Positions 9,843 through 64,000 of a stretch of 64,000 nt of DNA are shown here, piece by piece; the first letter of the stretch is position 1, and every line of letters starts with the position of its first letter. Source of the stretch: Eledone cirrhosa (Eukaryota); assembly GCA_964016885.1 (NCBI GenBank), contig OZ024741.1:66340001-66404000 (forward strand), in the 5' to 3' direction. The notes beneath the pieces are model-generated. The model was given only the letters and a program-made list of their open reading frames with translations, made no database searches and had not been told where the DNA came from. Made by a program: the position numbers and the translations under genes.

Positions 9843-10228
9843 AATAATTGTTTCTACTTTTGGTACAAGGCCAGCAATTATCCAGTACATTACTGGTACT
9901 TTATTTTATCGACGCGTAAGGATGAAAGGCAAAGTTAACCTCGACAGGATTTGAACTCAGACCGTAAAAGGACGTAACTATGCTGGAAAGCATGGCGTCC
10001 GACCCTCTACCGATACTGCCAATTCACCGCAGTAGTTATAATAATTGTTTCTATGTTAGGCACAAGGCCAGCAATTATCAGTACATTACTGGTACTTTAT
10101 TTTATCAACCCCGTAAGGATGAAAGGCAAAGTTAACTTTGGCGGGATTTGAACTCGGAATGGCAAGGGCCGTAACTCTATATGTCAAAGCATGGCGTCCG
10201 ACCCTCTACCAATACTGCCAATCCAATG
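9843..10228 (-). mobile_element. Two head-to-tail copies of tRNA-derived SINE family 1
   Basis: Each copy has an A-box-like TGGCAGTATCGG, the B-box GAGTTCAAATCC, the body gcctttcatccttac..gataaaataaagtaccagtaatg, and the 3' end ggccttgtg/acc..gtagaaacaattatt. Confidence 0.9.
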
Positions 10229-28093: not shown

Positions 28094-28168
<75 letters not shown>

Positions 28169-28423
28169 AATGATTTCATTTATTGGCCACAAGGGCCGAC
28201 ATATAGGGGACAACACAATAGACAGGGACAGTGGGGGTTTACATAGAGATCGAGTAAGTATAAATAACAAAAAACAAAATAACAATAAAAATACAACAAT
28301 GAAAGTTCCCCAATAAGAGGGATCACCACCCAGGGTTGACTCAAGCACCCCACCAGTCCTGAGCCACCCGACGCTCCTAGGGCACCCGGGAAGGGCACCC
28401 CTCTCCTTCTCGAATTCACCAGC

Positions 28424-31400
28424 CTACAGGCGCATGATCAGAGTAGGCCCACTCACGCGGGCCATTCTCGCCACATTCACCCACCTTTCAGTAAATGTAC
28501 TGGGGGGCAGCACTTCTCTCTCCACCCTCACCTTCCTTTCCAAGTGAAACTTGAAGAAGTTGATGAGGGATTGGCCGAAGAGAAAAGTGTCTGTCTTCAG
28601 TCCTTTCAACCTGGTCCACCATGCAACCTCTTTCGCTACTGCCACCAGGCAGAGGAAAATTGCCTGCCCTTCCTGACCAAAAGAAGGCGGCGGGTCAATC
28701 TTCACTATGGACTCGGACGATAGCCGGATCCGTTCTACACGCGACAATAGCTGTTCGACATAACCCCACAAGTCAGCAATGCACGGACACTGGACGAGTG
28801 CGTGCAGAACGGTTTCGTCGCTCTGCGCGCATCTCGGGCAGGTTCGTCTGACAGCACTTCCGTGCCTGTAGAGTTTATCCCGAACCGGCAGCGCCCCCCG
28901 GTAGCACTGCCAAGCGAGGGATTTCTGGAAGTTATCCATCGTCCCCGGCTCGAAAGTCCTCCGGAACATACTGGTCAGTTCTACTTCGTTGACGCCCAGA
29001 GCCTCTCCTAGTACGTCATCGCACTTGCCCTCCACTAATCCTCTATAGAAATCTTGAGTGGAAGTTCCACTGACCGCATTGCCCACCTTGCAGAGTGCAG
29101 TGAGCGCCTGGCAACATTCCAGATGCCAGTCGCCCAGTCTCGGTCTCTTCTTGACCCAGGACTGCAGCTCAGTCAAAGAGATGAGCTGCGGAAAGGCCCG
29201 TCTAACAAACGGCGACCACACCTGTTCACCGTTTAGGCAAAATATCTGGAGATGTCGCAGCCTCAGCGCATGTCTGCGCATCATTAGCCACGGCATGCCC
29301 AGCCCTCCACGAAGAGGGTGCTGGCAGCAGATGGACCGCCTCACCAACGGGACCCGTCCCCTCCACAAAAATTTGAAAAGGAGCCGTTCCAAATTGGCGA
29401 GGCGTGGACGGGGGCAAGGCACGACGGTCAGGCGGTAGTAGATGACGGACGCGATGTACGCGTTCGCCACCTCCGCCCGCCCTTTCAGTGATAGCTTTCT
29501 CTCAGCCCATTTCTGAGTGAGGTTGGCTATCCTGCTCGTCACCTCGTCCCAATTCTTATCCACCTGGAGGTCTGGTCCGAACCAAACCCCGAGCAACTTT
29601 ACCGGTCCGTCTGTCCAGCGCCCAACGACGCTGTTGGACGGCATGGACTTGCCTCTCCAGGTGCCGAGCTGCAAGCCCACCGACTTTTCCGGGTTAAGTT
29701 TTGCTCCCGTCAACCTTTCATATTCCTCCAAATGGGTGCGGATCACCTCGATTTCCGAGGTGTCCGACACCATCACGGTGATGTCGTCCGCATAAGCGGA
29801 CGCAGCCTTTCTACGTCCCGGTTCGAGCGGGATGCCCTGCAACAACTCCAGCTTCCGCAGTAGAGGCTCAAGAGTCAATACGTACAGAAGTGAGGATAGA
29901 GGGCACCCTTGACGGACCGATCGAGAGATCTGAAACGGTTCCGAGAGGTGGCCATTAACTTTGACCACCGAGCAGATGCCGCTGTACATTGCAGCGATCC
30001 AGCTTCTGAAGACGGGGCCGAAGCCAGCCGCCTCGAGGACAGCCTCCAAGTACCGATGGTCGACCCTATCGAATGCTTTCGATTGATCTAAATTGATCAG
30101 AGCCCCACCGAAGCCAGGTTTGCACCCAACCCTCTCTATGATGTATCGCATGAGGTGGAGGTTGTCGTGTATGGACCTGGTCGGGATTGCGCAAGTTTGC
30201 GCCTCCCCAACCAAATCTTTGACGACAAGCGCCAACCTTTTCGCTAACACCTTGGCCAAAATCTTAAACTCTGTGTTGAGCAGGGTTATGGGCCTGAAAT
30301 TATCTAGTGTGTCCCTCTTGTTCTCGTCTTTCCTTATCAGCGTCACTACGCCACGGCTCACAGAACTGGGAATGCTCCCGTTCTGCTGCCAGTTGCAGTA
30401 GAGCGCTTCGAGGAGATCGGAGAACAAGTCTGGCATATTTACGTAAAGCTCGTAGGGCAGACCATCCAAACCGAGTGACTTGCGACTCGAGCAGCCGACA
30501 AGGGCGTCCTGAATTTCGACTGATGTTATCGGCTCTTCGCAGCGCTCAGCGTCGGCCGTCGAGAGGCGTGGCAAGCCGTCGAGGTAGGGATTGAAGTCCG
30601 CCGCCGTCTCCGACTCACCCATCCTCCCGAACAATCGAGCAAAGTGCTGGCGAAAGGCCTCACACATCTGCTTGGAATCGCTCAGTTCGTGTCCATCTCG
30701 ATCCGTCAAAGACCGAATTGTGGTTTTATTTCCACGCTGCGTCTCTGCAAAGCGAGCCCATCGGGCAGCTTTGGTTCCCTCGTTCCTCAGAGCACGCGCC
30801 TTAGCTCTGACAATGCAACCTTCGTGTTTCGCATTGAAGAAATGGTCTAGTGCCATTCTCGCCGCTAGCACGTCTGTTGCAATGCCACTACAAATAGCCT
30901 CGTCTAACTTAGCTATCAGCCCCTCCTCCTTTCTATTTTTCTCTATTGCTACTTCTTTGCTAAATCCTATCGAGGTTGCTCTAATCTCTCTTTTGAGTGC
31001 CCCCCACCACCTGTTGTTGACAACCCCCCCTGTCAACTTTTGCTTAACTAAGTTGTTGACCCGGTCCCTGTAAGCTTTACGTGCCGGAAACGACATGTTT
31101 AGCTTCCAGTAGCTAGGTCCTAACCTACGTGTCTTATCTAGGTCGACCATACAGATCACAAGCTTGTGATCTGAATAGGCAACCGTTTTAAAATGTGGAC
31201 ATCCTACACTATTTCTATCTCTTTTCCTAATGAAAATCCTATCTATGTACGATCTAGATGACCCTATGCGATTGGTCCAGGTCCATACTGGCGCATTAGG
31301 GAAATCTAGTCGGTACCTGTCAGACAGTTGAAACTGGCTGATCAGGTACTTGAGGCTTTTGCACCCCCCGCTCCTATCAGATACTCCCACACAATCCCAG

Positions 31401-31843
31401 CGTACTTCTAAGATGCCATTCCAATCCCCTATTAACAGTAAAGGGCGAGACGTAAGCAGAAAGTTTTCCAGGCGCCTAAAGAAGTCCGGCCGACCGGCCC
31501 CAGTAGGGGCGTAGACGGCCACCAGTCTAAAGGCACCACCTTCGCTATTGCTCACGTCCAGGACCACCAACTTTCCGTCAGGATCCCGGAAGATTGACCT
31601 TACCTCGAGATCCAGACATTTCCTAAACAGCACAGCCACTCCACCTCCCATTCCCGGCCGACTAACAGATGCAAAGATCTGATAATCGTCGAAAATCGGC
31701 GCCAGTGCGCGTGTGTCGGAAATTCTGGTCTCGCTGATGGCAATTACATCCATTCCTAGTGACCTGAGGTCGTTGAGCAAGTGACCTTGCTTCCAGGGCG
31801 ACCCCAGGCCACGAACATTTAAACTTCCTACTCTTATGGCCAT
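28424..31843 (-). CDS. Tx1-like ORF2p: APE endonuclease, reverse transcriptase, C-terminal Cys/His finger (1139 aa, intact)
   Basis: SLNVRGL, SET, VYAP, GDWN, YIDRIF, YSDH; NFRPITLLN, DQSKAFDRV, VRQGCPLS, AYADD; GGLG; CPRC..ETVLHALVQC. Confidence 0.95.
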   Translation of the reverse strand: MAIRVGSLNVRGLGSPWKQGHLLNDLRSLGMDVIAISETRISDTRALAPIFDDYQIFASVSRPGMGGGVAVLFRKCLDLEVRSIFRDPDGKLVVLDVSNSEGGAFRLVAVYAPTGAGRPDFFRRLENFLLTSRPLLLIGDWNGILEVRWDCVGVSDRSGGCKSLKYLISQFQLSDRYRLDFPNAPVWTWTNRIGSSRSYIDRIFIRKRDRNSVGCPHFKTVAYSDHKLVICMVDLDKTRRLGPSYWKLNMSFPARKAYRDRVNNLVKQKLTGGVVNNRWWGALKREIRATSIGFSKEVAIEKNRKEEGLIAKLDEAICSGIATDVLAARMALDHFFNAKHEGCIVRAKARALRNEGTKAARWARFAETQRGNKTTIRSLTDRDGHELSDSKQMCEAFRQHFARLFGRMGESETAADFNPYLDGLPRLSTADAERCEEPITSVEIQDALVGCSSRKSLGLDGLPYELYVNMPDLFSDLLEALYCNWQQNGSIPSSVSRGVVTLIRKDENKRDTLDNFRPITLLNTEFKILAKVLAKRLALVVKDLVGEAQTCAIPTRSIHDNLHLMRYIIERVGCKPGFGGALINLDQSKAFDRVDHRYLEAVLEAAGFGPVFRSWIAAMYSGICSVVKVNGHLSEPFQISRSVRQGCPLSSLLYVLTLEPLLRKLELLQGIPLEPGRRKAASAYADDITVMVSDTSEIEVIRTHLEEYERLTGAKLNPEKSVGLQLGTWRGKSMPSNSVVGRWTDGPVKLLGVWFGPDLQVDKNWDEVTSRIANLTQKWAERKLSLKGRAEVANAYIASVIYYRLTVVPCPRPRLANLERLLFKFLWRGRVPLVRRSICCQHPLRGGLGMPWLMMRRHALRLRHLQIFCLNGEQVWSPFVRRAFPQLISLTELQSWVKKRPRLGDWHLECCQALTALCKVGNAVSGTSTQDFYRGLVEGKCDDVLGEALGVNEVELTSMFRRTFEPGTMDNFQKSLAWQCYRGALPVRDKLYRHGSAVRRTCPRCAQSDETVLHALVQCPCIADLWGYVEQLLSRVERIRLSSESIVKIDPPPSFGQEGQAIFLCLVAVAKEVAWWTRLKGLKTDTFLFGQSLINFFKFHLERKVRVEREVLPPSTFTERWVNVARMARVSGPTLIMRL

Positions 31844-31872
31844 GCTGGCAGGATGAATGGGAGAGGAAAGGT

Positions 31873-33782
31873 TTACTTACCTTCCGGGGTCTTGTGAAGG
31901 TCGGGTGGTTCGACCTCCATGGTTTGTGGGGTTTCTTTTGGGAACCCCTTTAATAGTCTTGACGTGGGTTTTACGTTCGGGGTTCCCACATCCCGAGGAA
32001 AGCTCTTTCGAATTTCTTTGTATGAAGCGAGCGACATTCGCATCAGAAGCAAATTATCTGGTACGCGAAATGTGCTCGCTTCAAATGTTTCCCCGTCTTT
32101 TTCGATGTTTGTGCTTCGTGCTACATGGGCCATCAATTCCTTGTTGGCCCTTCTGGCAAGCACGAAGTTTTTAATGTTTTGTTGCTCGGGTTTTATTTGT
32201 TCGTGTGATTGTGGTGGTGATAGCTTTGTTAGTGTTGTTTCTATTGTGTCTGCGTTTGTTGTGGGTGGGGTGTCTGTAGTTTCTGATGTTTGTGTGTCTA
32301 TTTGTTCTTGTGTCTGTTTAGCTTGTTTGCGTTTGGGGGATTTTGGTGGTTGTGTTGGTGATGCTGTGGGGAAAATGTTTGTGTGGGTGGTGTGTGTATT
32401 TTTTTTTGTGGGGGTGTTTGTGCTTTGTGGATTTCTTTTTTTTTGTGTTTTGTTTTTTGTATTTTGGGGGACTTTGGTTTTCCCTCATCTTCACTGCTGG
32501 AGGATGAGGGGTCTGTGGCTGTGAGCGTGTTTGTGTCTGAGTGAGTGTTTATGTTCTTGTTCGTGTGTGTATTTTGGGGGGGAGGGGGAATGGGAGAGCT
32601 TTCCTCGTTTCCCCCCTGGGTGTGCAATTTTGGTGGTTCCATTGTTGACGGTGTTGCTGGTGGTCCTTGTCCCGGCGTCGCCAGCAGTGGAATCTTTCGA
32701 CCCCTTGCGCTTTTCGGCAGTTGAGGGCAGAAGGCTCGCAAGTGTGTCGTTTCCCCACAAAGGAAACAATGCGGCCTTTTGCCCTCAGTCATTATATGCA
32801 ACACCCTCCCGTTTTGGAGGCGGATGTGGTCCGGGATTGCTTTTACGTTTTCGGGTCTGATTTGGAGCAGTATCTCCAGATCAACCCCGGACCAGTCGTC
32901 CCTGGCAGTTCTCGTTGCCTCTACCGGGACTGTATCCGTTCCTTCCACGATTACGCAACCCAGGAGCCACCACATATCAAGTCCTGGTGGAATCCTGGGA
33001 ATGCGCACACGTGCTATTCGTTTTCCCATGTGGGAGGGGTACATTATAACCTTGCTGGTTTTGCAAGGGGTCATTGAATGCTTCACAGCGAGGGCTTCAG
33101 ACTTGAACAGCACCGAAACGGTGCCGTATTGCCTGCCCCTCTCTATGAAGTCTGTGTCCTCTCTGATGTATTTCAGTGCGGCTTCTATATCAGCTTGGGC
33201 GATTATCGCTGCCCTCTTTGTCTCTACTGAGATGCATCTGAAATGCACCGTTCTTTTTTCCACTGCCTCAATGGCTTCTGCCGGGACAGTTAAGTTTGCC
33301 CAGGTCTGCTCTTGATTTATGATTTTCCAGGCCTGGGCCAACTTTTCCTCTCTGTTGGTTAAGTCGATGCTGTAGCATGGTCTCCTTTTAGCCGCTGCCA
33401 CAGCAGCGAAGGTGTTCTTGTTGGTGTTGTCACTGTTGTTGTTCTTGTTGGTGTTGCTGCTGCTATTGCTGTTGTTGTTCTCCCCTGTGTCGTGGTTACC
33501 CTCTGTGCTGTTGGCCTTGTTGGTGCTGTTGCTGTCGCTACTATTACTCTCTGTGCTGTTCGTTTTGTTGGTGCTCTCGCTATTACCACCTTCTGCGCTG
33601 TTCGGCTTGTTGGTGTTGGTGTTGTCGCTGTTACCACCTTCCGCGCCGCTCGGCCCGTTGGTGCTGGCACTGTCGCTGCTCACATTCGTGCTGGTGGCGC
33701 TCCTCGCCTCACCTCTCCTCTCAACGCTCAAGTCGCCGTTGCACGACAGCAGACCCGCCTCTAGGGGGCGTGGCTCCGCCAT
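31873..33782 (-). CDS. Tx1-like ORF1p, split by one -1 frameshift at a poly-A run near 32436-32444
   Basis: Asn/Ser-rich N-terminus and CCHC knuckle CFLCGETTHLRAFC. The -1 frame ORF 31873-32163 is homologous to the in-frame C-terminus of the copy D ORF1 (F..DVG.P.V.P..R.L and ME..pPD). Confidence 0.85.
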
Positions 33783-34021
33783 GTTTTTTTGAGAAAAAAA
33801 TTATTATTTTTTTTTTTTTCAAAATAAAGTTCAAATATTTGGGCCAAAAGGCCCAAATATTATGAGTTATTCCTTCACAGGATACAAATTAATGTCTTAT
33901 AATGCTTCAGCGGTACAAAAAATAAACAATTCTCTACAATTAATCCTCAAAAAATTGCTTACTCACGGAGCTTCAAAAAACGTACATCCACTTTCGTCAA
34001 TAATAATAATAATAATAATGA

Positions 34022-34212
34022 TAATTGTTTCTACTTTTGGCACAAGGCCAACAATTAATCAGTGTATTACTGGTACTTTATTTTATCGACCCCATAAGGA
34101 TGAAAGGCAAAGTTAACCTCGGCAGGATTTGAACTCAGAATGGCAAGGGCCGTAACTCTATGCGTCAAAGCATGTCGTCCAACCCCCTACCGATACTGCC
34201 ACTCCACCGCCC
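34022..34212 (-). mobile_element. SINE family 1 between Tx1 copies A and B
   Basis: Full head, body and 3' stem-loop. Its (ATT)n tail abuts the 5' end of copy A. Confidence 0.9.
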
Positions 34213-34217
34213 TGTGG

Positions 34218-34249
<32 letters not shown>

Positions 34250-34250
<1 letters not shown>

Positions 34251-35645
34251 CTTTCTTTATTAACCACAAGGGTTTACGCAAAGTAAAACATTCAGGACAA
34301 TACAGGACAATACAGGACGGTACAAATGGGCATTTCTGCGTGTTATAAAAACAACAACAGAGGATGTAACAACAAAAGAAACAATGAAAAATTCCCTAAT
34401 AGGGGGGGGGGGGGGACTTCCGAGTGACATTCGTGGAGAAAGCCCATTAAAAAAGCCACGGTGACCCTGACCACCAAGGCAAGTGCTCTCTCCCAGTTTT
34501 CCACCTTTAATTTACAGGCGCATGCTCAGAGTAGGCCCATTCACGCGGACCATTCTTGCCTCCCTCACCCATCTTTCAACAAAATGCTGGGAAGAGAGCA
34601 CTTCCCTCTGTACCCTGATTTTCCTTTTCAAATGAAATTTGAAAAAGTTATTCAGGCCATCACCGAAGAGGTAAGTGCTCGTCTTCAGCCCTTTCAAACG
34701 CGTCTACCATACTATCTCTTTCGCCATGGCTACCAGACAGATACAAACTGCCTGCCCTTCCCGGCTAAAGGAGGAGGGCGGGGCAATCCTCACGATGGAC
34801 TCAGCTGATAGCCGGATCCGTCCTACACGCGACAGTAGGTGTTCGACACAAACCCACAAGTCAGCAATGCTCGGACACTGGACGAGTGCGTGCAGGACGG
34901 TTTCGTCGCCCTGTGCGCATCTCGGACATGCCTGGCTGACGTCACTTCCATGCCTGTAGAGTTTATCCTGAACTGGCAAAGCTCCTCGGTAGCACTACCA
35001 GACCAGGGATTTCTGGAAGTTGTCCATAGGCCCCGGCCCGAAAGTTCTTCCGAAGAGATTGGCTAGTTGATTTTCGTCGACGCCCAGAGTCTCCCCAAGT
35101 ACGTCGCCGCTCTTCCCCTCCACTAATCCTCTATAGAACGCCGAGGTGGAGTTTCTACCGATCGCATTGCCCGACTGGTCGAGGGCTATGAGCGCCTGAA
35201 CACATTACAGTCTCCAAGCGCTCCCTCTCGGTCTTCGCTTGTCAAGGAGACGAGCTGGGGAAACACGCGTCTAGCACACGGCGACCACACCTGATCACCG
35301 TCGAGGAAGAGGTGGAGATGTCGTAGCCTGAGCGCGTGTCTGCGCACCATCAGCCACGGCAAGCCCAGCCCTCCACGTAGCGAGTGTTGTCAGTAGATGG
35401 ACCGCCTGACCATTGGAGCGGGCCCCTTCCACAAAAAGCGAAAGAGCAAACGTTCGAGCGCAGTCAGGCGAGGCTTAGGACAAGGCACGACGGTCAGGCG
35501 GTAGTAGATGACGGACGCGATGTACGCATTCGCCACCTCTGCTCGACCTTTCAGGGATAGCTTCCTCTCTGCCCATTTCGGGGTGAGAGAAGCCACCCTG
35601 CTCGTCACCTCGTCCCAGTTTTTGTCCGTCTGGAGGTCTGGACCG
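34250..35645 (-). mobile_element. 5'-truncated, decayed Tx1-like LINE, copy B (distinct 3' UTR subfamily)
   Basis: ORF2 C-terminal fragments (KWAERKLSLKGRAEVAN, CPRCAQGDETVLH). (AAT)n lies at both junctions. Confidence 0.9.
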
Positions 35646-35655
35646 AATAATAATA

Positions 35656-35838
35656 ATTGTTTCTACTTTTGGCACAAGGCCAGCAATTACCCAGTACATT
35701 ACTGGTACTTTATTTTATCGACCCCATAAGGATGAAAGGCAAAGTTAACGTCGACGGGATTTGAACTCAGACCGTAAAGGGACGTAACTATGCTAGAAAG
35801 CATGGCGTCCAACCCTCTACCGATACTGCCAATTCACC
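35656..35838 (-). mobile_element. SINE family 1 between Tx1 copies B and C
   Basis: Full SINE with (AAT)n on both sides. Confidence 0.9.
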
Positions 35839-35860
35839 TAATAATAATAATAATAATAAT

Positions 35861-38800
35861 GATTTCATTTATTGGCCACAAGGGCCGACATATAGGGGAC
35901 AATACAAAACAGTGGGGTTTTACAGAAAAATCGAGTAAACAATATGAATAACAATAACAAAGTAACAATAACAAAGTAACAATAAAATTACAACAAGAAA
36001 AAATTTCCCAATAGGGGGGGATGACCACCCAGGGTTCTCTCAGGTACCCCACCAATCCTGAACAACCCGACGCTTCGAGAGCACCCTGGAAGGGCACCCC
36101 TCTCTTCCTCAAATTCACCTACCTACTGCCGCATGACCAGAGTAGGCCCACTCACACGGGCAATTCTCGCCACATTCACCCACCTTTCAGCAAATATACT
36201 GGGAGGAAGCACTTCTCTCTCCATCCTCACCTTCCTTTCCAAGTGAAACTTGAAAAAGTTGATGAGGGATTGGCCGAAGAGAAAAGTGTCTGTCTTCAGT
36301 CCTTTCAACCTCGTCCACCATACAACCTCTTTCGCTACTGCCACCAGACAGAGGAACATTTCCTGCTCTTCCTGGCCAAAAGAAGGCGGCGGGTCGATCT
36401 TCACTATGGACTCGGTCGATAGCCGGATCCGTTCTACACGCGACAACAGCTGTTCAACATAACTCCACAAGTCAGTAATGCACGGACACTGGACGAGTGC
36501 GTGCAGAACGGTTTTGTCGCCCTGCGCGCATCTCGGGCAGGTCCGACTGACAGCACTTCCGTGCCTGTAGAGTTTATCTCGAACCGGCAGTGCCCCCCGG
36601 TAACACTGCCAAGCGAGGGATTTTTGGAAATTATCCACTGTCCCCGGCTCGAAAGTCCTCCGGTTCAGACTGGTTAGTTCGACTTCGTTGACTCCCAGAG
36701 CCTCTCCGAGTGCGTCGTCGCACTTGCCCACCACTAATCCTCTATAGAACTCGAGAGTGGAAGTTCCACTGACCGCATTGCCCGCCTGGTAGAGGGCAGT
36801 GAGTGCCTGGCAACATTCCAGATGCCAGTCACCCAGTCTCGGTCTCTTCTTGACCCAGGACTGCAGCTCAGTCAAAGAAACGAGCTGCGGAAAGGCCCGT
36901 CTGACAAACGGCGACCACACCTGTTTACCGTTTAGGCAGAATATCATTAGCCACGGCATGCCCAGCCTCCACGTAGAGAGTGCTGGCAGCAGATGGACCG
37001 CCTCACCAGCGGAACCTGACTCCTCCACAAGAATTTAAAGAGGAGCCGCTCCAAGATGGCGAGGCGCGAACAGGGGCAAGGGACGACGGTCAGACGGTAG
37101 TCGATGATGGACGCGATGTACGCGTTCGCCACCTCGCCCGACCTATCAGTGAGAGCTTCATCCCAGCCCATTTCTGGGTGAGACTGGCTACCCTGCTCGT
37201 CACCTCGTCCCAATTCTTATCCACCTGGAGGTCTGGCCCGAACCAAACCCCTAGCAACTTTACCGGTCCGTCGGTCCAGCGCCTAACGACGCTGTTGGAC
37301 GGCATGGACTTGCCTCTCCAGGTGCCGAGTTGCAAGCCCACCGACTTTTCCAGGTTAAGTTTTGCTCCCGTCAACCTTTCATATTCCTCCAATAAGTTGC
37401 CGACCACCTCGATTTCTGAGGTGTCCGACACCATCACGGTGATGTCGTCCGCATAAGCCGACACAGCCTTTCCGCGTCCCGGTTCGAGCGGGATGCCCTG
37501 CAACAGCTCCAGCTTCCGCAGTAAAGGCTCGAGAGTCAATACGTACAGAAGGGAGGAGAGAGGGCACCCTTGACGGACCGATCGGGAGACCTGAAACGGT
37601 TCCGAGAGGTGGCCATTAATTTTGACCATCGAGCAGGTGCCGCTGTACATTGCAGCGATCCAGCTTCTGAAGACGGGGCCGAAGCCAGCCGCCTTGAGAA
37701 CAGCCTCCAGGTACCGATGGTCGACTCTATCGAATGCTTTCGATTGATCTAAATTGATCAGAGCGCCACCGAAGTCAGGTTTACACCCTACCCTCTCTAT
37801 GATGTATCGCATTAGGTGGAGGTTGTCGTGTATGGACCTGGTTGGGATTGCGCAAGTTTGCGCCTCCCCAACCAAATCCCCGACGACAAGCGCCAACCTC
37901 TTCGCTAACACCCTGGCCAAAATCTTAAACTCTGTGTTGAGCAGAGTTATGGGCCTGAAATTGTCTAATGTGTCCCTCTTGTTCTCGTCTTTCATTATCA
38001 GCGTCACTACGCCCCGGCTCACAGAACTGGGAATACTCCCGTTTTGCTGCCAGTTGCAGTAGAGGGCTTCAAGGAGATTGGAGAACAAGTCTGGCATATT
38101 TACGTAAAGCTCGTAGGGCAGACCATCCCAACCGGGTGATTTGCGCCTCATGCAGCCGACAAGGGCATCCTGAATCTCGGCTGGGCCTTTCGCAGCGCCC
38201 AGCGTCAGCCGTCGAAAGTTGCGGCAAGCCATCGAGGTAGGGATTGAAGTCCGCTACCATCTCTGACCCGCCACTTCCGAGCAAAATGTTGGCGAAAGGC
38301 CTCACACATCCGCTTGGAATGGCTCAGCTCGTGTCCGTCTCGGTCCGTCAAAGACCGAATCGTGGTTTTATTACCACGCTGCGCCTCTGCCACGCGGGCC
38401 CATCGAACAGCTTTGGTTCCCTCGTTTCTCAGAGCACGCGCCTTAGCTCTGACAATGCAACCTTCGTGTTTCGCATTGAAGAAATGGTCTAATGCCATTC
38501 TCGCCGCTAGCACGTCAGTTGCAATGCCACTACCAATAGCCTCGTCTAACTTATCTACCAACTCCCCCTCCTTTCTATTTTTCTCTAACGCTACTTCTTT
38601 GCTTAACTCTATCGACATTACTCTAATCTCTCTTTTGAGAGCCCCGCCACCATCTATTGTTGACGACTCCCCCTGTCAACTTTTTCTTAACTAAATTGTT
38701 GACCTGGTCCTTGTAAGCCTTACGTGCCGGAAATGACATGTTTAGCTTCCAGTAACCAGGTCCTAACCTACGCGTCTTATCTAGGTCGACCATACAGATC

Positions 38801-41702
38801 ACAAACTTGTGATCTGAATAGGCGACCGTTTCAAAACGTGTACAGCTTACACTATTTCTGTCTATTTTCTTAATGAATATCCTGTCTATATACGATCTAG
38901 ATGACCCTATGCGGTTAGCCCAGGTCCACACTGGCGCATTAGGGAAATAAAGTCGTTACCTGTCAGACACTTGAAACTGGCTGATCAGGTTCTTGAGGCT
39001 TTTGCACCCCCCCGCTCCTATCGGATACTCCCACACAGTCTCAGCGTGCGTCTAAGATGCCGTTCCAGTCCCCCGCTAACAGTAAAGGGCGAGACGTACC
39101 CAGAAAGGCTTCCAGGCGTCTAAAGAAGTCCGGCCGTCCTGCCCCAGTAGGAGCATAGACGGCCACCAGTCTAAAGGCACTACCTTCGTTATTGTTCACG
39201 TCCAGGACCATCAACTTCCCGTCCGGGTCCCGGAAGATCGACCTTACCTCGAGATCCAGGCCTTTCCTAAATAGCACTGCCACCCCGCTTCCCATTCCCG
39301 GCCGGCTAACAGATGCAAAGATCTGATAGTCGTCGAGAATGGGGGATAGTGCACGCGTGTCGGAAATCCTGGTTTCGCTGACGGCAATTACATCCATTTC
39401 TATAGACCTGAGGTCGTTGAGCAGGTGACCCTGCTTCCAGGATGATCCCAGGCCTCCAACATTTAAACATCCTACTCTTAATACGACCATGTTGGCAGGT
39501 TAAAAAGAGAGAAAGGAAGGTTTACTTACCTTCCGGTCTCTTGTGAAGGTCGGGTTGTTCGACCTCCATAGTTGGTGGGGTTTCTTTTGGGAACCCATTT
39601 AAAAGTCTTGAAGTGGGTTTTACGTTCGGGGTTCCCACGTCCCGAGGAAAGCTGTCTCGTATTTCTTTGAATATGTCGAGCGACATTCGCACCAGAACAA
39701 AATCTTCCGGCACGCGAAATGTGCTCGATTTAAAAATTTCCCCCTCTTTTTGTATATTTTCACTTCGTGCTACGAGGGCCATCAGTTCCTTGTTGGCCCT
39801 CCTGACGAGCACGAAGTTTTGTATGTTTTGTTGGTGTGATTTTATTTGTTTGCGTGGCTGTGGTGGTGATGGTTTTGGTGGTGTTGTTTTGGTTGTGTCT
39901 GTGTTTGTTGTGAGTGCGGTGTCTGTGGTTTCAGATGTTTGTGTGTATATTTGTTCTTGCGTCTGTTTAGGTTGTTTGCGTTTGGGGGATTCTGGTGATG
40001 GTGATGGTGGTGTTGATGTTGGTGTTATTGGAGAGATGTTTGCGTGGGGGGTGTCTGCATTTTTTTTTTTATTGTGGGTGATTTTGTGCTTTGTTGAGTT
40101 TTTTTTTTCTTTTTGTGTTTACTTTTTTGTATTTTGGGGGATTTTGGTTTTCCCTCATCTTCACTACTGGTAGATGAGGGGTCTGTGTCTGTAAGTGTGT
40201 CTGTATGTATGTTTATGGTTTTATTGGTGTGTGTATTTTTTGGGGGAGGGGGAATTTGACAGCTTTCCTCGTTTCTCCCCTGGGTGGTCAATGTTGGTGG
40301 TGGTATTTCTATTGGTGTTGTTGTTGGGGGTTTTGCCGGTGCTGGTGTTGGTTGTGGTCCTCGCCTCGGCGTCGGCAGCAGTGGAGCCTTTCGACCCCTT
40401 GCCTCTTTCAGCAGTTGAGGGCAGAAGGTTCGCAAAAGGGTTTTTTTCCCACAAACAAAACACTGCGGCCTTTTGCCTTCGGTCATAATGTGAATGACCG
40501 TTCCATTCTGAAGGGGGATGTGGTCTGGGATTGTCTTCACATTCTCGAGCCTGATCTGGAGAAGGATCTCCAGGTCAACCTCGGACCAGTCCTCTCTGGC
40601 CGTTCTGGTCACTTCTATAGGGACGGTATCCTCCCCTCCACAATCACACATCCCAGAAGCCACCACATGTCAAGTCCTGGTGGGATTCTGGGAATGCGGA
40701 GACGGGCCGTTCTTTTTCTCATGTGGGAGGGGTACATTATGACCTTGCTGGTTTTGCAAGGAGTCATAGCGTATTTCAAAGCGAGGGCTTCTGACTTGAA
40801 CAACACCGAACTGGTGCCGTACTGTCTGCCCCTCTCTATGTATTCGGTGTCTTCTCTGATGCACCTCAGCGCGACTTCGACATCTGCTTGTGGGATTAAA
40901 GCTGCCCTTTTGGTTTGTGCTGAGATGCATCTATAATGCACCGTTCTGCGCTCCACTGCCTCAATAGCTTCTACCGGGACAGTTAAGTTGGCCCAGGTTT
41001 GCTCTTGCTTGATGAGCTTCCATGCCTGGGCCAACTTTTCATCTTTGTTTGAGAGGTCCATGTTGAAGCATGGCCTCTTTTTTGTTGCTGCCGCAGCGAA
41101 AGTGTTCTTCTTGTTTTCGTTGGGGGTGTTGTTGTTATCACTGTTGCTGTTATCATTGTTGTCTTTGTTGCCACCGTTGTTCTCGGTGCAGTTGGTATTG
41201 TTGGTGTTGGTGTTGTCGCTATTTGTTTTCATGTTAGTGGTGTTGATATTGTTGCATTTGTCATTTTTTTTTTCGTTATCTGTACTTTCGTTGTGGCTGT
41301 TACTGTCATTTTTTTCAAAATTAGAGTTCTCTTTGGTATCATTGGTGTCTTTGTTTACATTGTTTGTGGTGGTGTTTGTGTTATCAATGTGTGTTAATTT
41401 CACTGTAGCGCTCCTCTCAACTTCTACGTCGTTGTCGCACGACAGCCGGCATATCGCTGGGGGGGGGGGGGGGGGGGGGGTTCGTGGCTCAGCCATATTT
41501 TTTTTTTTCCTCCGTAAATTTTTTTAACATGTAAAAAAAGTTCAAATATTTGGGCCAAAAGGCCCAAATATACTTTCCCCTTCACGGGGAAAAGTCTAAG
41601 GGCTTATATCCCTTACACAACAAGAAATATTTAACAACAAATAATTTTAACAGGCAAATAAAGCGACTTACTGGGAGCGAGCAAAATACGTCCGCTTAGA
41701 CC
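35861..41702 (-). mobile_element. Full-length but decayed Tx1-like LINE, copy C
   Basis: ORF1 in three pieces (40615-41496, 40025-40666, 39522-39812). ORF2 in pieces from 39490 to 36123, closely similar to copy A. (AAT)n lies on both sides. Confidence 0.95.
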
Positions 41703-41944
41703 AATAATAATAATAATAATAATAATAACATTAATAAAGATGCTGATGTTACAAAAATCGTTTATTCATTATAATTATTTCAACGGTTCTCCCATGCAAT
41801 GAAGATGTAATTCATGCATTTGTTGTTGTTATGAGAACGGTATCCTCAGATGAAATTCGATTTTGTGATATGCTGCCGGCAGGAAAAAAAACACACGTCC
41901 TTCTGCTCGTGCGTCCAGCATCTTTATTGATGTTATTATTATAC

Positions 41945-42338
41945 TGGGGTCGATTTAGTCGACTTTCCCCACCCCCAAAATTGCTGGCCTATAAGAAACC
42001 ATTATTATACTGAGTTCAAATCCCGCCGAGGTTGACTTTGCCTTTCATCCTTACGGGGTCGATAAAATAAAGTACCAGTAATGTACTGGTTAATTGCTGG
42101 CCTTGTGCCAAAAGTAGAAACTATTATTATACTGAATCTCTAGGGCGGTGGATTGGCAGTATCAGTAGAGGGTCGGACGCCATGCTTTGACGCAAAGAGT
42201 TACGTCCCTTTACGATCTGAGTTCAAATCCCGCCGAGGTTAACTTTGCCTTTCATCCTTACGGGGTCCATAAAATAAAGTACCAGTAATGTACTGGGTAA
42301 TTGCTGGCCTTGTGCCAAAAGTAGAATCAATTATTATA
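41945..42338 (+). mobile_element. Tandem SINE family 1 cluster (fragment, partial, full)
   Basis: Repeated gagttcaaatcccgccgagg and ggccttgtgccaaaagtagaa. attattatactga recurs at the junctions. Confidence 0.85.
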
Positions 42339-46460: not shown

Positions 46461-46660
46461 AGGGCTGTGAGGAGGCCAGCACGTGGGACCCCATTTGCTC
46501 ACCATACAGAGAGATGGGGAGGGCGAGAGAGATGGAGGCGATGACAGTGGGAGTTCAGCTCTTCCACATTCGGACCATATCCTTGTGGTTGTGTTTATTA
46601 TCTATATAGAAAATTATTTATTTCCTTATTACTTCGTTGAAAGATTTTATCATGATTTTC

Positions 46661-46872
46661 AGGGCGGTGGATAGGCAGTATCGGTAGATCGTTAGACACC
46701 ATGCTTCGCGGCATAGAGTTACGTTCTCATTTCAAATTCCACTGAGCTTAGCTTGCCTTTCATCCTTACGGGGTTGATAAAATAAAATGCCAGTAACGCA
46801 CTGCAGTCGATTTATCGACTTTTCCCTCCCCCAAAATTGTTGGCCTTGTGCCTAAATCAGAAACCAATATTA
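46661..46872 (+). mobile_element. SINE family 1, long variant
   Basis: gggcggtggataggcagtatcgg..ccccaaaattgttggccttgtgcctaaatcagaaacc. Confidence 0.85.
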
Positions 46873-49550: not shown

Positions 49551-49739
49551 ATTACAGTATTGTGAATTTTTGCATATATATATATATTTACATAGTAAAA
49601 TTTTTTATTAATTCTTCAGCGTGTGTAAAAATATAATAATATAATGTAATTCATTGAACAATAATTATAAAAGAAAGAAAAAAGAGAGAAATCGAGAGGG
49701 GGGTGGGCAGTTCATCACCAAGTGCGCCAATAGGCCGCA

Positions 49740-49930
49740 CCTCACACCTTAGGGATTAACTACACACTTTCAGGCAAGCCAGCATGCTCGCAGCATTACC
49801 ACGGGTGATGGCGAGGCTAAGGCGCTGAAATAACCAGGTACCCTCATGGGTATCACCCAATACCTCAGTAAGATGAGCCGCCAGTGAAGATAAGAACATA
49901 GCCCAACTCCACCAAACCTCTCAAACGCCA
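49740..49930 (-). mobile_element. CRE-like LINE 3' fragment
   Basis: The - strand reads EGTWLFQRLSLAITRGNAASMLACL. Confidence 0.7.
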
Positions 49931-58712: not shown

Positions 58713-58929
58713 CTCTGGGATGGACACACGCGTATAACTTGCTGAGTAAGTTCTGTTTAAATTTCTATAGAAATTCTTGTCTGATAACTTTAATTTTTGT
58801 ACCATTTTGTAGAGGGACTGCCAGGTCAAACTTTGATCTGGTCAGTCTCTCAAAATATTCCACGCCTTTAGGCGAAATAGTTAAACAAAAATAAAGTTTT
58901 TTCTTGTTGAAAAGTCAATATTTTTTTAA

Positions 58930-60717
58930 ATGGCCGAAGCTTCTTCACCAAAATTCGAAGGAGGAAAGGGGAAGATGAACTTACAGCTTCCCCCTGCCAC
59001 TGTCACAGTAGCAGAGGTCAAGAAGAAAGGTCAGCCAGAGGAAGAATTCTCTCCACCTGTTAACCGACAACTTGACGTTGCCATGGCAACAACTCAAAGA
59101 ACCAGCAGCAACAGCAACAACAACAATGCGACGGACGAAAACAACACCAATAACAATAACAATAACAACAACAAGACCAATAACGGTGACAACAACAACA
59201 ATGATAACAACAACACCACCAACGACAACAACAACACAAACAAACAAAATTTCTCCTTCGCCGAGACGACAAGGAAAACCCTCGACTATCTGCCAGTAGA
59301 TATAACAAAAGCGAAGGAGCTACTGGCGGATGCGAAAAAATATATAGTGTACGGGGAAAATGGTTCATTCACAATCCATTCCCCCCCGGAACTAAAAAGC
59401 CAGAGACTCCTAAACACGGTCATGTTTAGGACAATCTCGAACAAAAGTAAAAAACCAGCTCAACCATCACAGAGCGAGATAGAGCTGGTTTTAAAAGACG
59501 TCATGAAGGACATCACCTTCATTCAGAAGGATAGACTCTACGGGAGTCTATCCATTCTCATGAAGGACAGGGACACAGCAGTGAAACTGTCCATCAAACC
59601 AATCACATCCACCGCATACACCTTCTACCCTACGTACATGGGTAGAAGAACACAAAAAATAAAAATCCACACCATCCTGCCGATTATGGACATATGGTGG
59701 GTTTTGACAGGTTTTCTGGACCTGGAGGATGACATGCTGGTGTCCATGGGAAAGGCATCGGGTGACGCGTTCAGTGGAACGAGCCTCGAACTTGTAGTTC
59801 AAATGAGGCCCGAAAGGATCGCCCAGATCCCTGAACGCGTCATACTGGATGATCTAACCTTCATCAACATTACCGTTGAGGGTAGACGGCCCTCGTGTTA
59901 CCTCTGCGGAACCAGAGGTCACCTGAGGGCTGTCTGTCCCCAACTTAATAAGAAAACCCCAATCCTGCCTACACCACCAACAACTGCACAACCAACACAA
60001 TCACCACAACTACCACTACAAAAACAACCACCACAGCTCAAACCAAAACAAAACAATGTCCAACCCATCCCCTCCACTCAAAAAACAAAAACAATTTCCA
60101 AAACACCCGTACCGCAAACACAACCCGAAAATATACCCCTCCCCTCCAACGCGGAAGATGACCCTAGTTCGTCGTCAGACGAGGAGGAGCACTTCCACAC
60201 AATCAAAAGAAAAAAAAGAAAACACACCTCAGACACACAAATGAAAAAAAACCCTCCCCAAAACATAACACTGACACCAACACAAAAGAGCTCACAACAA
60301 CAGCAAACAAAAAACACCACACAAAAACAAAAACATGCATACACATACATAAATACAAGAAACAAAAAACTGTTAAACATTGTGTACAACAACAATCTAA
60401 TAAAAACACAAGGGCCTAACTTCACCCAGGCAGGGGATTTCCCCCACCTCAAAATGATTAAGGCCCCACAGGACACCTATAAAACTTTAAAAAACAATTT
60501 TAAAGAGGACGTGGGTCCCCCCTGCGTCGGGCCCATTAACCGCGTCCTCCTAAAAAACTATCCCACCCCCTCCCCAAACACCCACACAACTCCAAGCTCC
60601 CCAACCACACATCACACTGATGCCCCCACACTTCCACAAACCACCACCCCACCCAACAACCCATCCCCCACCCTAATGGAAATTGTGCAGCCCGATACCC
60701 GGGACGCAGAGAGGTAA
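58930..60717 (+). CDS. Tx1-like ORF1p, 595 aa
   Basis: Poly-Asn N-terminus, YPTYMG, CCHC knuckle CYLCGTRGHLRAVC, DPSSSSDEEE plus a basic patch, and a conserved C-terminal module. Confidence 0.9.
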   Translation: MAEASSPKFEGGKGKMNLQLPPATVTVAEVKKKGQPEEEFSPPVNRQLDVAMATTQRTSSNSNNNNATDENNTNNNNNNNNKTNNGDNNNNDNNNTTNDNNNTNKQNFSFAETTRKTLDYLPVDITKAKELLADAKKYIVYGENGSFTIHSPPELKSQRLLNTVMFRTISNKSKKPAQPSQSEIELVLKDVMKDITFIQKDRLYGSLSILMKDRDTAVKLSIKPITSTAYTFYPTYMGRRTQKIKIHTILPIMDIWWVLTGFLDLEDDMLVSMGKASGDAFSGTSLELVVQMRPERIAQIPERVILDDLTFINITVEGRRPSCYLCGTRGHLRAVCPQLNKKTPILPTPPTTAQPTQSPQLPLQKQPPQLKPKQNNVQPIPSTQKTKTISKTPVPQTQPENIPLPSNAEDDPSSSSDEEEHFHTIKRKKRKHTSDTQMKKNPPQNITLTPTQKSSQQQQTKNTTQKQKHAYTYINTRNKKLLNIVYNNNLIKTQGPNFTQAGDFPHLKMIKAPQDTYKTLKNNFKEDVGPPCVGPINRVLLKNYPTPSPNTHTTPSSPTTHHTDAPTLPQTTTPPNNPSPTLMEIVQPDTRDAER

Positions 60718-60741
60718 GTGCCTTTTCTCTTCACTACCAAC

Positions 60742-63700
60742 ATGGCTATGCTAAGAGTAGGCTGTTTAAATGCGCGTGGCCTGGGCTCAACTTGGAAGCA
60801 AGCAATGCTTCTAAATGACCTCAGGTCACAACGTATAGATGTGATGGTTATTTGCGAGGCCCGGATCAGCAACGTGCGACAGCTGGCCCCCGCCTTTGAT
60901 GACTTTGAGATGCACGCATCTCTCTGTCAGCCCGGAGGCGGGGGTGGAGTTGTCGTTCTGCTGCAAAAACATCTGGGTCTCGCAACACAGATGGTACATT
61001 TGGACCCGGAGGGTCGACTAGTGGTTCTGGACCTTGGCAGTGGTAAAGGCGGAGCGTTTAGGTTGGTAGCCGCCTACGGCCCTTTCGGGTCAATGCGGCC
61101 GGACTTCTTCCATCGTCTGGAGACTTTTCTAGGGACGTCCCGCTCCTTGCTATTAGTGGGGGACTGGAATGGTATCCTAGATGCACGCTGGGACTACGTA
61201 GGGGCCTGCCCCGATAGAGAGGGGTGTAATAGCCTCAAAGGGTTAATCGGTCGATTTGACCTGGCCGATAGATATCGACTAGATTTTCCGACTGCGCCAA
61301 CCTGGACTTGGGCAAATCGTAGCGGATCATCTAGGTCGTACCTAGATAGGTTCTTAGTTAGAATTAAGGATAAGGACTTTTTAAGTTGTCCAAAAATGCG
61401 CATGGTTGGCTATTCAGACCACAAATTAGTGACCTGCATGGTCAACCTTGACAGAACTCATAGACAGGGCCCCGGTTACTGGAAGCTCAACTTGTCCTTG
61501 CCGGCAAGTAGAGCCTACAGGAATCGGATTAGTACGTTAGTTAAGGAACGGTTGACTGGAGCGATCGTCAACAGCAGGTGGTGGGTATCTCTAAAGAGAG
61601 AGATTAGAGTAGTCTCGATAGAATTTAGTAAGGTTCTAGCTGCGGATAGGAATAGGAAGGAAAGGGAGCTAATAGATAGAGTAGAAGAGGCAATTAGAAG
61701 CGGCGACGTGGCCAGAGTGCTAGCGTCGAGAACGGCTTTGAGCCAGTTTTTCGACGCGAAGCACGAAGGCTGCGTTGTCCGAAGTAAAATACGTGCTCTA
61801 GGGAACGAGGGGACCAAAGCTGTTAGCTGGGCCCGCGTGACAGAGGCCAACAGTGGAACTAAATCCACCATCCGGTCTTTGCGAGACCTGGATGGACGAG
61901 CGATTCTTGAGCCTAAGCAGATGTGTGAGGCCTTTCAAAGGCACTTTGCCCGACTGTTCGGGAGGGGCGGGGAGCCGGTTGGGAATGTGGACTTCGGTCC
62001 ATACCTCGACGGCCTGCCGCGCCTCTCGGACAGGGAGGCGAAGTCCTGCGAGGAGCCGATTTCGGCCGCTGAGATAGAGGACGTGCTGAGCCAATGCGGC
62101 AAACGCAAATCCCCGGGTCTCGATGGTCTTCCTTACGAATTATATCTAGCTATGCCGGACTTGTTCCCCGATCTCCTCGAGGTGGTCTACTGCAACTGGC
62201 AACAGAACGGGAGAATTCCCTGTACTGTGACCAAGGGCGTAGTCACGCTAGTGAGGAAGGACGAGAACAAGGGGGACGAAATAAGTAACTTCAGGCCCAT
62301 AACACTGCTAAATACAGAGTTACAGATTTTGGCCAAGGTGCTAGCAAAGAGGTTGGCGCTTGTCGTGGGCAACCTGGTGGGAGATGCGCAGACATGCGCT
62401 ATCCCGTCCAGGTCCATCCATGACAACCTCCACCTCATGCGATACATCATAGAGAGGGTTGGGAACGAACCCGGCTTTGGTGGGGCTCTGATCAACTTGG
62501 ATCAATCTAAGGCGTTCGATAGGGTCGACCATGGTTACCTGGATGCGGTGCTAGCGGCGGCAGGCTTCGGACCCGTTTTCAGGGGCTGGATCACTGCTAT
62601 GCACAGCAGCCGCATCTGCTCAAGGGTCAAGGTGAACGGCTACCTCTCGGAGTCGTTCAAAATCGCGCGGTCCATCCGACAAGGGTGCCCTCTCTCCTCC
62701 CTTCTGTATGTGTTGACTCTCGAGCCACTACTGCGGAAGTTGGAGTTGTTGCAGGGCATCCCTTTGGAACCGGGATTGCGGAAAGCGGTGTCGGCCTACG
62801 CCGATGACGTGACAGTAATGGTGTCGACGGCCTCCGAAATCGAGGCGGTCGGCACCTTACTGGAGGAGTACGAAAAGTTCACAGGGGCTAAGCTGAACCG
62901 GGACAAGTCGATCGGTTTGCAACTCGGCACGTGGAGGGGCAGACCGATGCCCTCCGATGGCGTCGTCGGACGCTGGACGGAGGGCCCGGTGAAGTTGCTC
63001 GGGGTCTGGTTCGGACCGGACCTCCAGGTGGAGAAAAACTGGGCGGAGGTTACGAACAGGGTGTTTGCACTGACCCAGAAGTGGGCCAGTTGCAAACTAT
63101 CCCTGAAAGGTCGGGCGGAGGTGGCGAACACTTATATAGCGTCCGTCATCTACTACCGCCTGACCGTAGTGCCCTGCCCAAGGGAAACCCTCACCAAGAT
63201 GGAGCGCGCGCTCTTCCAATTCCTTTGGAAGAGGCGGGCTCCTATGGTGAGGAGATCCATCTGCTGTCAACACCCTTCGAAAGGAGGGCTGGGGATGCCG
63301 TGGCTAATGATGCGTAAACACGCATTAAGGCTACGGCACCTCTACGTATTCCTCACCGGACAACCGGTGTGGGCCTCGTTTGTAAGACGAACCTTTCCCA
63401 GACTCGTCTCACTCACCGAGCTGCAATCCTGGGTCAAGCAAAGACCGAGAAAACTGGGCGCCTGGCACACTGAGTGTGCCCAGGCGCTCACCGCCCTCTG
63501 GCAGGCGGATCCGGTTATCAGTGGAGACTCCACCGCAACATTCTATAGAGGGCTGGTACGCAGCAGGTGCGACGACGCCCTCGGAGAAGCCCTAGACATG
63601 GAGGAGGACGAACTGGCCAGCCTGTTCGGTAGGACATTCAGCCCGGGACCTATGGACAACTTCCAGAAGTCCCTGGCCTGGCAGTGCTACCGAGGGGCTT

Positions 63701-64000
63701 TACCCGTTCGAGAAAGGCTCTACAGACACGGGCGCCCGGGTAGGGACCCCGCCAAAAAGATCTGTCCCAGATGCGTGTGCGACGAGGAAACCGTTGCACA
63801 CGCATTGGTACACTGCCCGGGCGTAGCCGATCTGTGGGGCTATGTCGAACAACTGCTGTCAAGGGTGGGACCGATCCGGTTGACCACCGAGTCTATTGTA
63901 ATGATCAAGCCGCCTCCCCCCTTCAAAGATGAAGCAGAGGCGGTGTTTCTGTGCGTAATAGCCATGGCGAAAGAGGTTGTATGGTGGACGCGTCTGAAAG
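60742..64000 (+). CDS. Tx1-like ORF2p (EN-RT), 3' end outside the window
   Basis: ATG 60742 (MAMLRVGCLNARGL) is in the same frame as AMAKEVVWWTRLK at 63961-63999. GDWN, YSDH, QGCPLS and YADD are present. Its absence from the ORF track is consistent with no stop inside the window. Confidence 0.9.
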   Translation, partial: MAMLRVGCLNARGLGSTWKQAMLLNDLRSQRIDVMVICEARISNVRQLAPAFDDFEMHASLCQPGGGGGVVVLLQKHLGLATQMVHLDPEGRLVVLDLGSGKGGAFRLVAAYGPFGSMRPDFFHRLETFLGTSRSLLLVGDWNGILDARWDYVGACPDREGCNSLKGLIGRFDLADRYRLDFPTAPTWTWANRSGSSRSYLDRFLVRIKDKDFLSCPKMRMVGYSDHKLVTCMVNLDRTHRQGPGYWKLNLSLPASRAYRNRISTLVKERLTGAIVNSRWWVSLKREIRVVSIEFSKVLAADRNRKERELIDRVEEAIRSGDVARVLASRTALSQFFDAKHEGCVVRSKIRALGNEGTKAVSWARVTEANSGTKSTIRSLRDLDGRAILEPKQMCEAFQRHFARLFGRGGEPVGNVDFGPYLDGLPRLSDREAKSCEEPISAAEIEDVLSQCGKRKSPGLDGLPYELYLAMPDLFPDLLEVVYCNWQQNGRIPCTVTKGVVTLVRKDENKGDEISNFRPITLLNTELQILAKVLAKRLALVVGNLVGDAQTCAIPSRSIHDNLHLMRYIIERVGNEPGFGGALINLDQSKAFDRVDHGYLDAVLAAAGFGPVFRGWITAMHSSRICSRVKVNGYLSESFKIARSIRQGCPLSSLLYVLTLEPLLRKLELLQGIPLEPGLRKAVSAYADDVTVMVSTASEIEAVGTLLEEYEKFTGAKLNRDKSIGLQLGTWRGRPMPSDGVVGRWTEGPVKLLGVWFGPDLQVEKNWAEVTNRVFALTQKWASCKLSLKGRAEVANTYIASVIYYRLTVVPCPRETLTKMERALFQFLWKRRAPMVRRSICCQHPSKGGLGMPWLMMRKHALRLRHLYVFLTGQPVWASFVRRTFPRLVSLTELQSWVKQRPRKLGAWHTECAQALTALWQADPVISGDSTATFYRGLVRSRCDDALGEALDMEEDELASLFGRTFSPGPMDNFQKSLAWQCYRGALPVRERLYRHGRPGRDPAKKICPRCVCDEETVAHALVHCPGVADLWGYVEQLLSRVGPIRLTTESIVMIKPPPPFKDEAEAVFLCVIAMAKEVVWWTRLK

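Follow-up and report, generated by a model that had tools for sequence, protein, structure and literature searches.

In UnaL2/UnaSINE1 and in the zebrafish elements ZfL2-1 and ZfL2-2, a stem-loop is located before a short 3' repeat, as at the locus analyzed here, and these elements serve as the model for loop-specific binding by ORF2 (PMC4176376). They belong to the L2 clade, their recognition is proven by experiment and their stem has an upper and a lower part (PMC4176376), whereas the elements described below carry a predicted stem of 3-4 bp and a repeat that is mostly target-derived. In maize and sorghum, ZmSINE2, ZmSINE3 and LINE1-1_ZM possess a common 3' hairpin, which shows compensatory changes and whose loop is conserved, and stringent recognition was inferred for it as it is here (PMC3747384, PMC3472496). 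In contrast to the present case, that pair represents a plant L1 lineage with about 50 nt in common and poly(T) SINE ends, and no microsatellite target is described in the available parts of these reports. In Table 1 of a 2013 survey (PMC3747384), which contains 58 SINEs with LINE tails, L1 tails are given for three, all from plants or algae, none of them Tx1 and none from octopus; 3' ends common to a SINE and an L1-clade LINE are thus rare. The previously published Tx1-driven SINE that was found, SINEU of crocodilians, was inferred to be mobilized by Tx1-Mar from target preference and overlapping age, as is done here, common targets being the sole ground of that case (PMC4494074). SINEU has a poly(A) tail and a Mariner transposon target, and no non-LTR family with the SINEU-1 3' terminus is given in the available text (PMC4494074), whereas here the 3' end is common and the target is ATT. 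Kibi, Koshi and related Tx1 elements insert into simple repeats, as here, but the targets listed for them are TC, TTC, TTCC and TTTC; neither ATT or TATC targets nor a SINE with a common end appear in the parts of these papers that were available (PMC4494074, PMC3812793). The mechanism of microsatellite targeting has been termed not well understood (PMC3812793). In literature searches, and in the available parts of these papers and of PMC13282606, PMC8967140, PMC7245038, PMC5804259, PMC4758252, PMC3531059, PMC4824008 and PMC6007223, we found no Tx1/SINE pair with a common structured end and no partner LINE assigned to an octopus SINE; a prior description may exist in Repbase, Dfam, SINEBase, Ohshima and Okada 1994, or Kojima and Fujiwara 2004.

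Here, we report a likely Tx1/SINE pair whose common end is weakly structured and whose LINE is both intact and young. If the proposed relationship is true, animal L1-clade elements would join those with stringent recognition. It would also bear on the question of whether mammalian poly(A) recognition is a derived relaxation, and name the engine of a SINE that occupies about 2.4% of the sampled DNA (evenly spaced stretches totaling 750 kb, with 126 copies). The LINE family concerned, family A, has intact and very young copies, which makes the role of the hairpin and the mechanism of microsatellite targeting accessible to direct tests.

Organization of the locus and its elements

The window, i.e. 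the whole 64-kb stretch of DNA that was analyzed, contains 18 SINE copies. Its minus strand between 28152 and 41737 is occupied, in head-to-tail order, by LINE C, a SINE, the truncated LINE B, another SINE and LINE A, with an (ATT)n run at each joint (Table 1).

Table 1. Coordinates of the Tx1-type LINEs, SINEs and ATT runs in the 64-kb window
Feature	Position	Strand	Remarks
Tx1-type LINE A	28172..33998	-	full length, young, intact
LINE A ORF2, 1139 aa	28424..31843	-	endonuclease, reverse transcriptase and zinc-binding domain (Pfam PF03372, PF00078, PF13966)
LINE A ORF1, 494 aa	32298..33782	-	CX2CX4HX4C knuckle in translation; no Pfam family
LINE A terminal stem-loop (predicted)	28185..28197	-	followed by AATAAA and GAAATC
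(ATT)n run, 3' junction of LINE A, target or tail	28152..28171	-	
(ATT)n run, SINE 3' end to LINE A 5' end	33999..34025	-	LINE A inserted within
SINE copy	34026..34214	-	tRNA-type A and B boxes by eye; terminal stem-loop 34038-34050
(ATT)n run, LINE B 3' end	34218..34249	-	
Tx1-type LINE B, 5'-truncated	34250..35645	-	stem-loop 34262-34274 with A-U pairs
SINE copy	35658..35838	-	stem-loop 35670-35682; four ATT units at 35646-35657
(ATT)n run, LINE C 3' end	35839..35860	-	
Tx1-type LINE C, full length, frameshifted	35861..41702	-	85.7% identity to A over 5.4 kb, UTR included; stem-loop 35874-35886
(ATT)n run, 5' junction of LINE C	41703..41737	-	
Long SINE variant	46659..46870	+	3-bp stem; C-rich stretch in common with A-type UTRs
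Sister Tx1 LINE D, 72.6% to A	58715..64000	+	at the right edge, within (TATC)n; 3' end past the window: stem, different loop, (TATC)n run

The terminal motifs named in an initial sequence-only reading were all recovered on the minus strand: GGCC/CTTGT/GGCC in LINEs A and C (loops 28189-28193 and 35878-35882), AACC/CTTGT/GGTT in LINE B (loop 34266-34270) and TGGC/CTTGT/GCCA in the SINEs (loops 35674-35678 and 34042-34046). The three LINEs and the SINE share a CTTGT stem-loop with a stem of 3-4 bp, followed after 16-17 nt by ATT. As that reading had it, the 3' UTR of LINE B is otherwise different, since B aligns with A (78% identity) to the end of ORF2 only, while C aligns through the UTR. The 7-mer spanning the loop occurs 29 times in the window versus 8.4 expected, a count reached by 0/100 shuffles.

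Among solved structures, the best match of LINE A ORF2p is human L1 ORF2p (E 5e-56), R2 being the only other reverse transcriptase (RT) matched (E 8e-21); a protein of Argonauta hians (69%) is nearest among the named relatives, which makes a cephalopod host probable, and the homologues are nearly all unnamed. Judged by its encoded domains (APE endonuclease, an RT closer to L1 and a C-terminal zinc-binding domain), LINE A is an L1/Tx1-clade element. The Tx1 label is a putative one, derived from this anatomy, including the CCHC knuckle in ORF1, a Tx1-clade feature, together with target specificity. All 150 scored LINE A matches in the element's own 3.0-Gb genome are 100% identical over the last 225 aa, and most of them sit in an open 1,150-codon frame; many of the matches recur at intervals of about 5.84 kb, in series of up to six. 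With this degree of identity, family A ranks as very young. A perfect inverted repeat is present in the 5' UTR of LINE A (33833-33862) and of LINE C (about 41544-41570).

The SINE is about 190 nt long, with a variant of 220 nt; A and B boxes are visible by eye, and searches with Rfam and ARAGORN found nothing. Being short and non-coding, with boxes, many copies and target duplications, the SINE is tRNA-derived. MetaSINE was taken as a presumable lead to its identity. It was rejected, the bivalve Meta sequences in the available supplement of PMC4824008 being by eye unlike the SINE core.

Elsewhere in the window, a long host-like reading frame with a Cys/His-rich N-terminus and an NHL repeat is located at 4101-5846 (+), a piece of a further Tx1-type ORF1 at 54600-55800 (-), and a decayed frame without a Pfam match, which we take to resemble a Penelope-type element, at 48500-49900 (-).

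Comparison of the SINE tail with LINE ends

The last 40 nt of four SINE copies were compared by end-anchored alignment with 13 LINE ends. Besides six Tx1 ends, these included ends of RTE, BovB-like, two Dong-like, Nimb-like and two CR1-like families from RT fragments mined in 1.15 Mb, the clade labels being presumptive assignments from motifs. All 24 SINE-Tx1 alignments gave z-scores of 2.0-5.2 (p <= 0.046), and 0/28 comparisons with the other seven ends rose above z 1.3; no better-matching LINE clade was thus found among the seven non-Tx1 ends. The long SINE variant lengthens the match upstream, as had been claimed, and its alignments with A-type UTRs scored highest of all tails (z 4.2-5.2); it matches A- and G-type UTRs best, and its oldest form equals G over the last eight bases. 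By these alignments, a short and diverged 3' terminal sequence is common to the SINE and the Tx1 LINEs. Since the match extends over 28-40 nt only, and the last 28 positions contain 10-18 identities, one has to consider that short, AT-rich ends with a common preference for ATT sites came to resemble each other by convergence or by chance. We regard this as very improbable, given that significance is confined to the Tx1 comparisons (24/24 versus 0/28) and that the match keeps a constant distance to the junction and reaches upstream in the long variant.

Individual LINE clades were rejected as partners on their ends. The Dong-like LINE ends in (AAT)n on its sense strand, which is the opposite register, and its tail has no match; the end of the RTE-like LINE is (GAT)n, and its match is to another short repeat that is also abundant. 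This second short repeat, with a (GAT)n end, has the same 3' end as the RTE-like LINE, and the two form a probable second SINE/LINE pair (L312, L131, L083, L037). No Tx1 family with the exact stem of the SINE was found. All 13 matches to the SINE-type stem with AATAAA were SINEs; with the upstream sequence changed, the same stem gave 190 matches, and 26 of the 30 read contained the SINE core. These stem searches gave no non-SINE family with a SINE-type stem. Among random tails, the core was present in 132/135, the other three looking like short truncated copies.

A second type of explanation holds that another LINE drives the SINE, either a CR1-like (ATT)n family or an unsampled or extinct clade. 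The CR1-like LINE (L305:2080-2790 (+); L357-L386), for which no Pfam match was obtained, terminates in a hairpin of its own followed by a genuine (ATT)n tail, and most of its copies lack target duplications. It has 5,973 exact ends, it is about as common as Tx1 in the random sample (10 versus 9 ends), and its divergence (8.5% in the random sample, n=9; 2.8% for pattern-selected copies) overlaps in age with the SINE; moreover, the habit of the SINE to use short targets is unlike that of the young Tx1 families. Nevertheless, its tail cannot be aligned with that of the SINE (z -0.4 to -1.0), its spacer is 20 nt, and at least three ATT units are present in 21/30 of its ends. Its duplications show no excess (5/44 versus 24/214 controls), and the one clear case begins after the ATT run. 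The RTE, BovB-like, Dong-like and Nimb-like ends, mostly represented by one copy each, mismatch the SINE and use other repeats. We therefore consider a different LINE engine improbable.

Conservation and stability of the predicted terminal hairpin

Stems were compared in 83 distinct ends, 71 of the ATT type and 12 of the TATC type. Pairs 1-3 are kept in 67-68 of the 71 ATT-type ends, a set that contains about 30 A copies and six SINE-derived or chimeric ends and was collected with a pattern fixing one stem G, and in 12/12 TATC-type ends; pair 4 is kept in 61/71 and 5/12, respectively. In the SINE, pair 4 is broken, as a U-U mismatch, in 44 of the 113 ends that carry one of the two main arm types, and it is broken in family E as well. 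The shared stem is 3 bp, because the fourth pair is broken in many SINE ends and in several Tx1 families. Double changes occur at pair 2 in the SINE relative to the LINEs, at pair 3 in B relative to the others, and as three types at pair 4. The stem change of LINE B that had been read from the window as compensatory is among them; independent events number only two or three. The hairpin motif looks lineage-specific on the sequences compared, because no such hairpin was seen by eye in the 3' regions of those with a complete ORF end among 80 distant relatives from metagenomes (25-40% identity); in several of them the 3' end consists of AATAAA and poly(A).

In folds of 45-nt ends, stability did not exceed that of shuffles (z -1.0 to +0.2), and the hairpin formed part of the best fold in LINEs A, B and C and in two of the four SINE copies. 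When 65-70 nt were folded, A, C, F and one SINE reached pair probabilities of about 0.9; D and E stood at about 0.7, B at 0.2, and the three remaining SINEs at 0.06-0.45. A 3-bp hairpin stabilized by protein is possible on these predictions.

In the collected LINE ends, the stem is succeeded by AATAAA, which the search pattern required; LINE ends read without that pattern have it as well. The SINE has no AATAAA and retains the stem, with the second pair reversed, the loop, the spacing and AGAAAC; because it kept them without AATAAA, these features may serve ORF2 and not polyadenylation.

One pattern search revealed 11,370 further LINE-type ends. In families B, E and G the stems differ but CTTGT and ATT are retained, whereas other families, to which LINE D belongs, target (TATC)n. 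A tree of ORF2 C-termini was built for 22 of 41 copies (at most three per end type) with four outgroups, and its nine TATC copies form one clade (99/100). CTTGT is kept in all 13 ATT copies of the tree, while the loop varies in the TATC clade; the 12 TATC ends contain seven loop types with the three pairs kept, and the TATC family F also has CTTGT. The CTTGT loop is consequently not private to the SINE and ATT-type Tx1, TATC-targeting sister families carrying it too. The TATC-targeting clade forms tandem arrays, and its stem is kept while its loop varies (window 58715-64000 (+), L031).

These data bear on the possibility that Tx1 is the engine but does not recognize a hairpin: pairing of the terminal AUU with the nicked target and a linear AGAAAC would suffice, and the stem-loop would be baggage or would act in LINE 3' processing beside AATAAA. 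The weak fold, the broken fourth pair and the AATAAA after the stem in LINE ends agree with it, as does the separation of clades by tail unit and not by loop, family F with its TATC unit and CTTGT loop included. Yet the SINE, devoid of AATAAA, keeps three pairs (the second reversed), the loop and the exact spacing; the TATC clade changes its loop (seven types in 12 ends) while the three pairs stay; and in the census of repeats ending at ATTAT, the only retroelement-like families among the matches listed are the SINE, Tx1 and one CR1-like LINE. This alternative appears unlikely to us, albeit less so than an engine from another LINE.

The distance from loop to junction is 16 nt in 77/80 SINE ends and in B, E and G, and 17 nt in the intact family A. 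The sequence-only reading had put forward this L1-clade family as the engine; the Tx1 group is well supported in this role, while the ORF2 of LINE A may not be the historical engine because of the 17-nt spacer. By spacer length, families B, E and G are more likely to have played this role than A.

Divergence from column majorities has medians of 3.4% (n=27) and 6.2% (n=69) in SINEs, and amounts to 0% in A, 1.8% in B and 2.5% in E, the Tx1 sets, including B and E, being drawn from pattern-selected copies and hence biased young. The age profiles, which that reading had left to be compared, therefore overlap.

Four SINE bodies (L283-L286) continue, from the common loop on, as Tx1 ends that come from different families, and at L333:1495-1530 a single Tx1 ORF2 runs into the end of a SINE. 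These chimeras were not counted as evidence, as template switching or later deletion in nested arrays is possible.

ATT targets and the proposed mobilization mechanism

The (ATT)n at the element ends had been read as part of the shared 3' end. It is present, but does not hold as a tail of the SINE itself: in the 1.15-Mb random sample, 100/135 SINE ends run on into ATTAT and only 17/135 have at least three ATT units, and ATT starts the duplication. Target-site duplications, mostly of 12-25 nt, were detected at 59/131 SINE ends versus 26/641 swapped controls, a test that superseded an unreliable boundary-based search (23/122 SINEs). In 55/59 cases the duplication starts at the first ATT, and the base before it is C or T in 41/46. 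Hardly any tail thus belongs to the SINE itself. Genome-wide, 118,438 exact 31-nt SINE ends are followed by ATT and none, in the end form searched, by TATC; at most 23,724 (about 20%) have three ATT units.

At least three ATT units were present in 81/100 Tx1 ends, and directly upstream of the 5' end in 20/20 full-length LINE A copies checked; the upstream run belongs to an earlier Tx1 end in 6/20 and to a SINE end in 4/20. LINE A is thus inserted into the ends of its own family, and (ATT)n is mainly the insertion target and not a tail. A blind duplication test on Tx1 ends gave no excess (7/78 versus 41/382 controls), because most copies lie within repeats or extend past the 1.5-kb flank. Duplications were then examined in 18 Tx1 copies picked for short ATT runs. 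In two truncated copies, L398 (16 nt) and L404 (12 nt), the duplication starts at the junction; the same is plausible for L388 and L393, two copies lie within a minisatellite at C^ATTAT, and the others are ambiguous. The ATT register is the same in LINE and SINE insertions, and junction-start duplications were seen in both, for Tx1 in the few copies just named, but the targets of the SINE are shorter: it lands at short ATTAT sites, and LINE A inside (ATT)n repeats.

The claim that Tx1 is the engine of the dominant SINE is supported by the Tx1-specific tail match, the same ATT register and style of duplication, overlapping ages and the lack of a better LINE end among those compared; mobilization of the SINE by this Tx1 group is, in our judgment, quite probable. 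More specifically, we favor, with a probability of roughly 60%, a reading in which Tx1 ORF2 copies the SINE in trans by gripping the predicted three-pair CUUGU hairpin 16 bases upstream of the priming start. Following the established course of target-primed reverse transcription, a nick by the endonuclease would fall on the strand opposite Y^ATTAT, and the DNA end released in this way would base-pair with the AUU that terminates the RNA. ORF2, bound to the hairpin, would start reverse transcription 16-17 nt downstream, and a second nick roughly 10-25 bases away would produce the target duplication. The AUU of the LINE would come from read-through into its own target, which would also lead to head-to-tail arrays. 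The terminal 30-40 bases of the SINE would derive from an ATT-type Tx1 ancestor; AATAAA, unneeded by a Pol III transcript, would then have been lost, while stem, loop, spacing and AGAAAC were kept.

Stringent hairpin recognition by ORF2 is a step that we only infer from sequence comparison, and several points count against it: the hairpin is no stabler than shuffles, pair 4 breaks, compensatory events are few, no extant Tx1 has the SINE's own stem, and target use differs between LINE and SINE (at least three units in 81/100 versus <=20%). A wider proposal is more doubtful still. According to it, the same enzyme would direct the LINE to long (ATT)n and the SINE to any short ATTAT; the endonuclease would read the five-base motif only, and the apparent microsatellite specificity would arise through RNA-DNA pairing, depending on how long an AUU stretch terminates the RNA. 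The terminal unit (ATT versus TATC), and not the loop, would decide which Tx1 clade is usable, these elements would represent animal L1/Tx1 elements with stringent hairpin recognition, and the SINE would amount to a natural experiment on microsatellite targeting.

SINEs also enter the duplicated target of an earlier SINE, producing tandem runs with a repeated spacer (window 9845-10225 and 42010-42333; L047, L114, L134). Furthermore, Tx1 copies and SINEs are often located tail-to-tail with Dong-like LINEs, on the opposite strand of the Dong (AAT)n (L008, L015, L054, L062, L094, L333).
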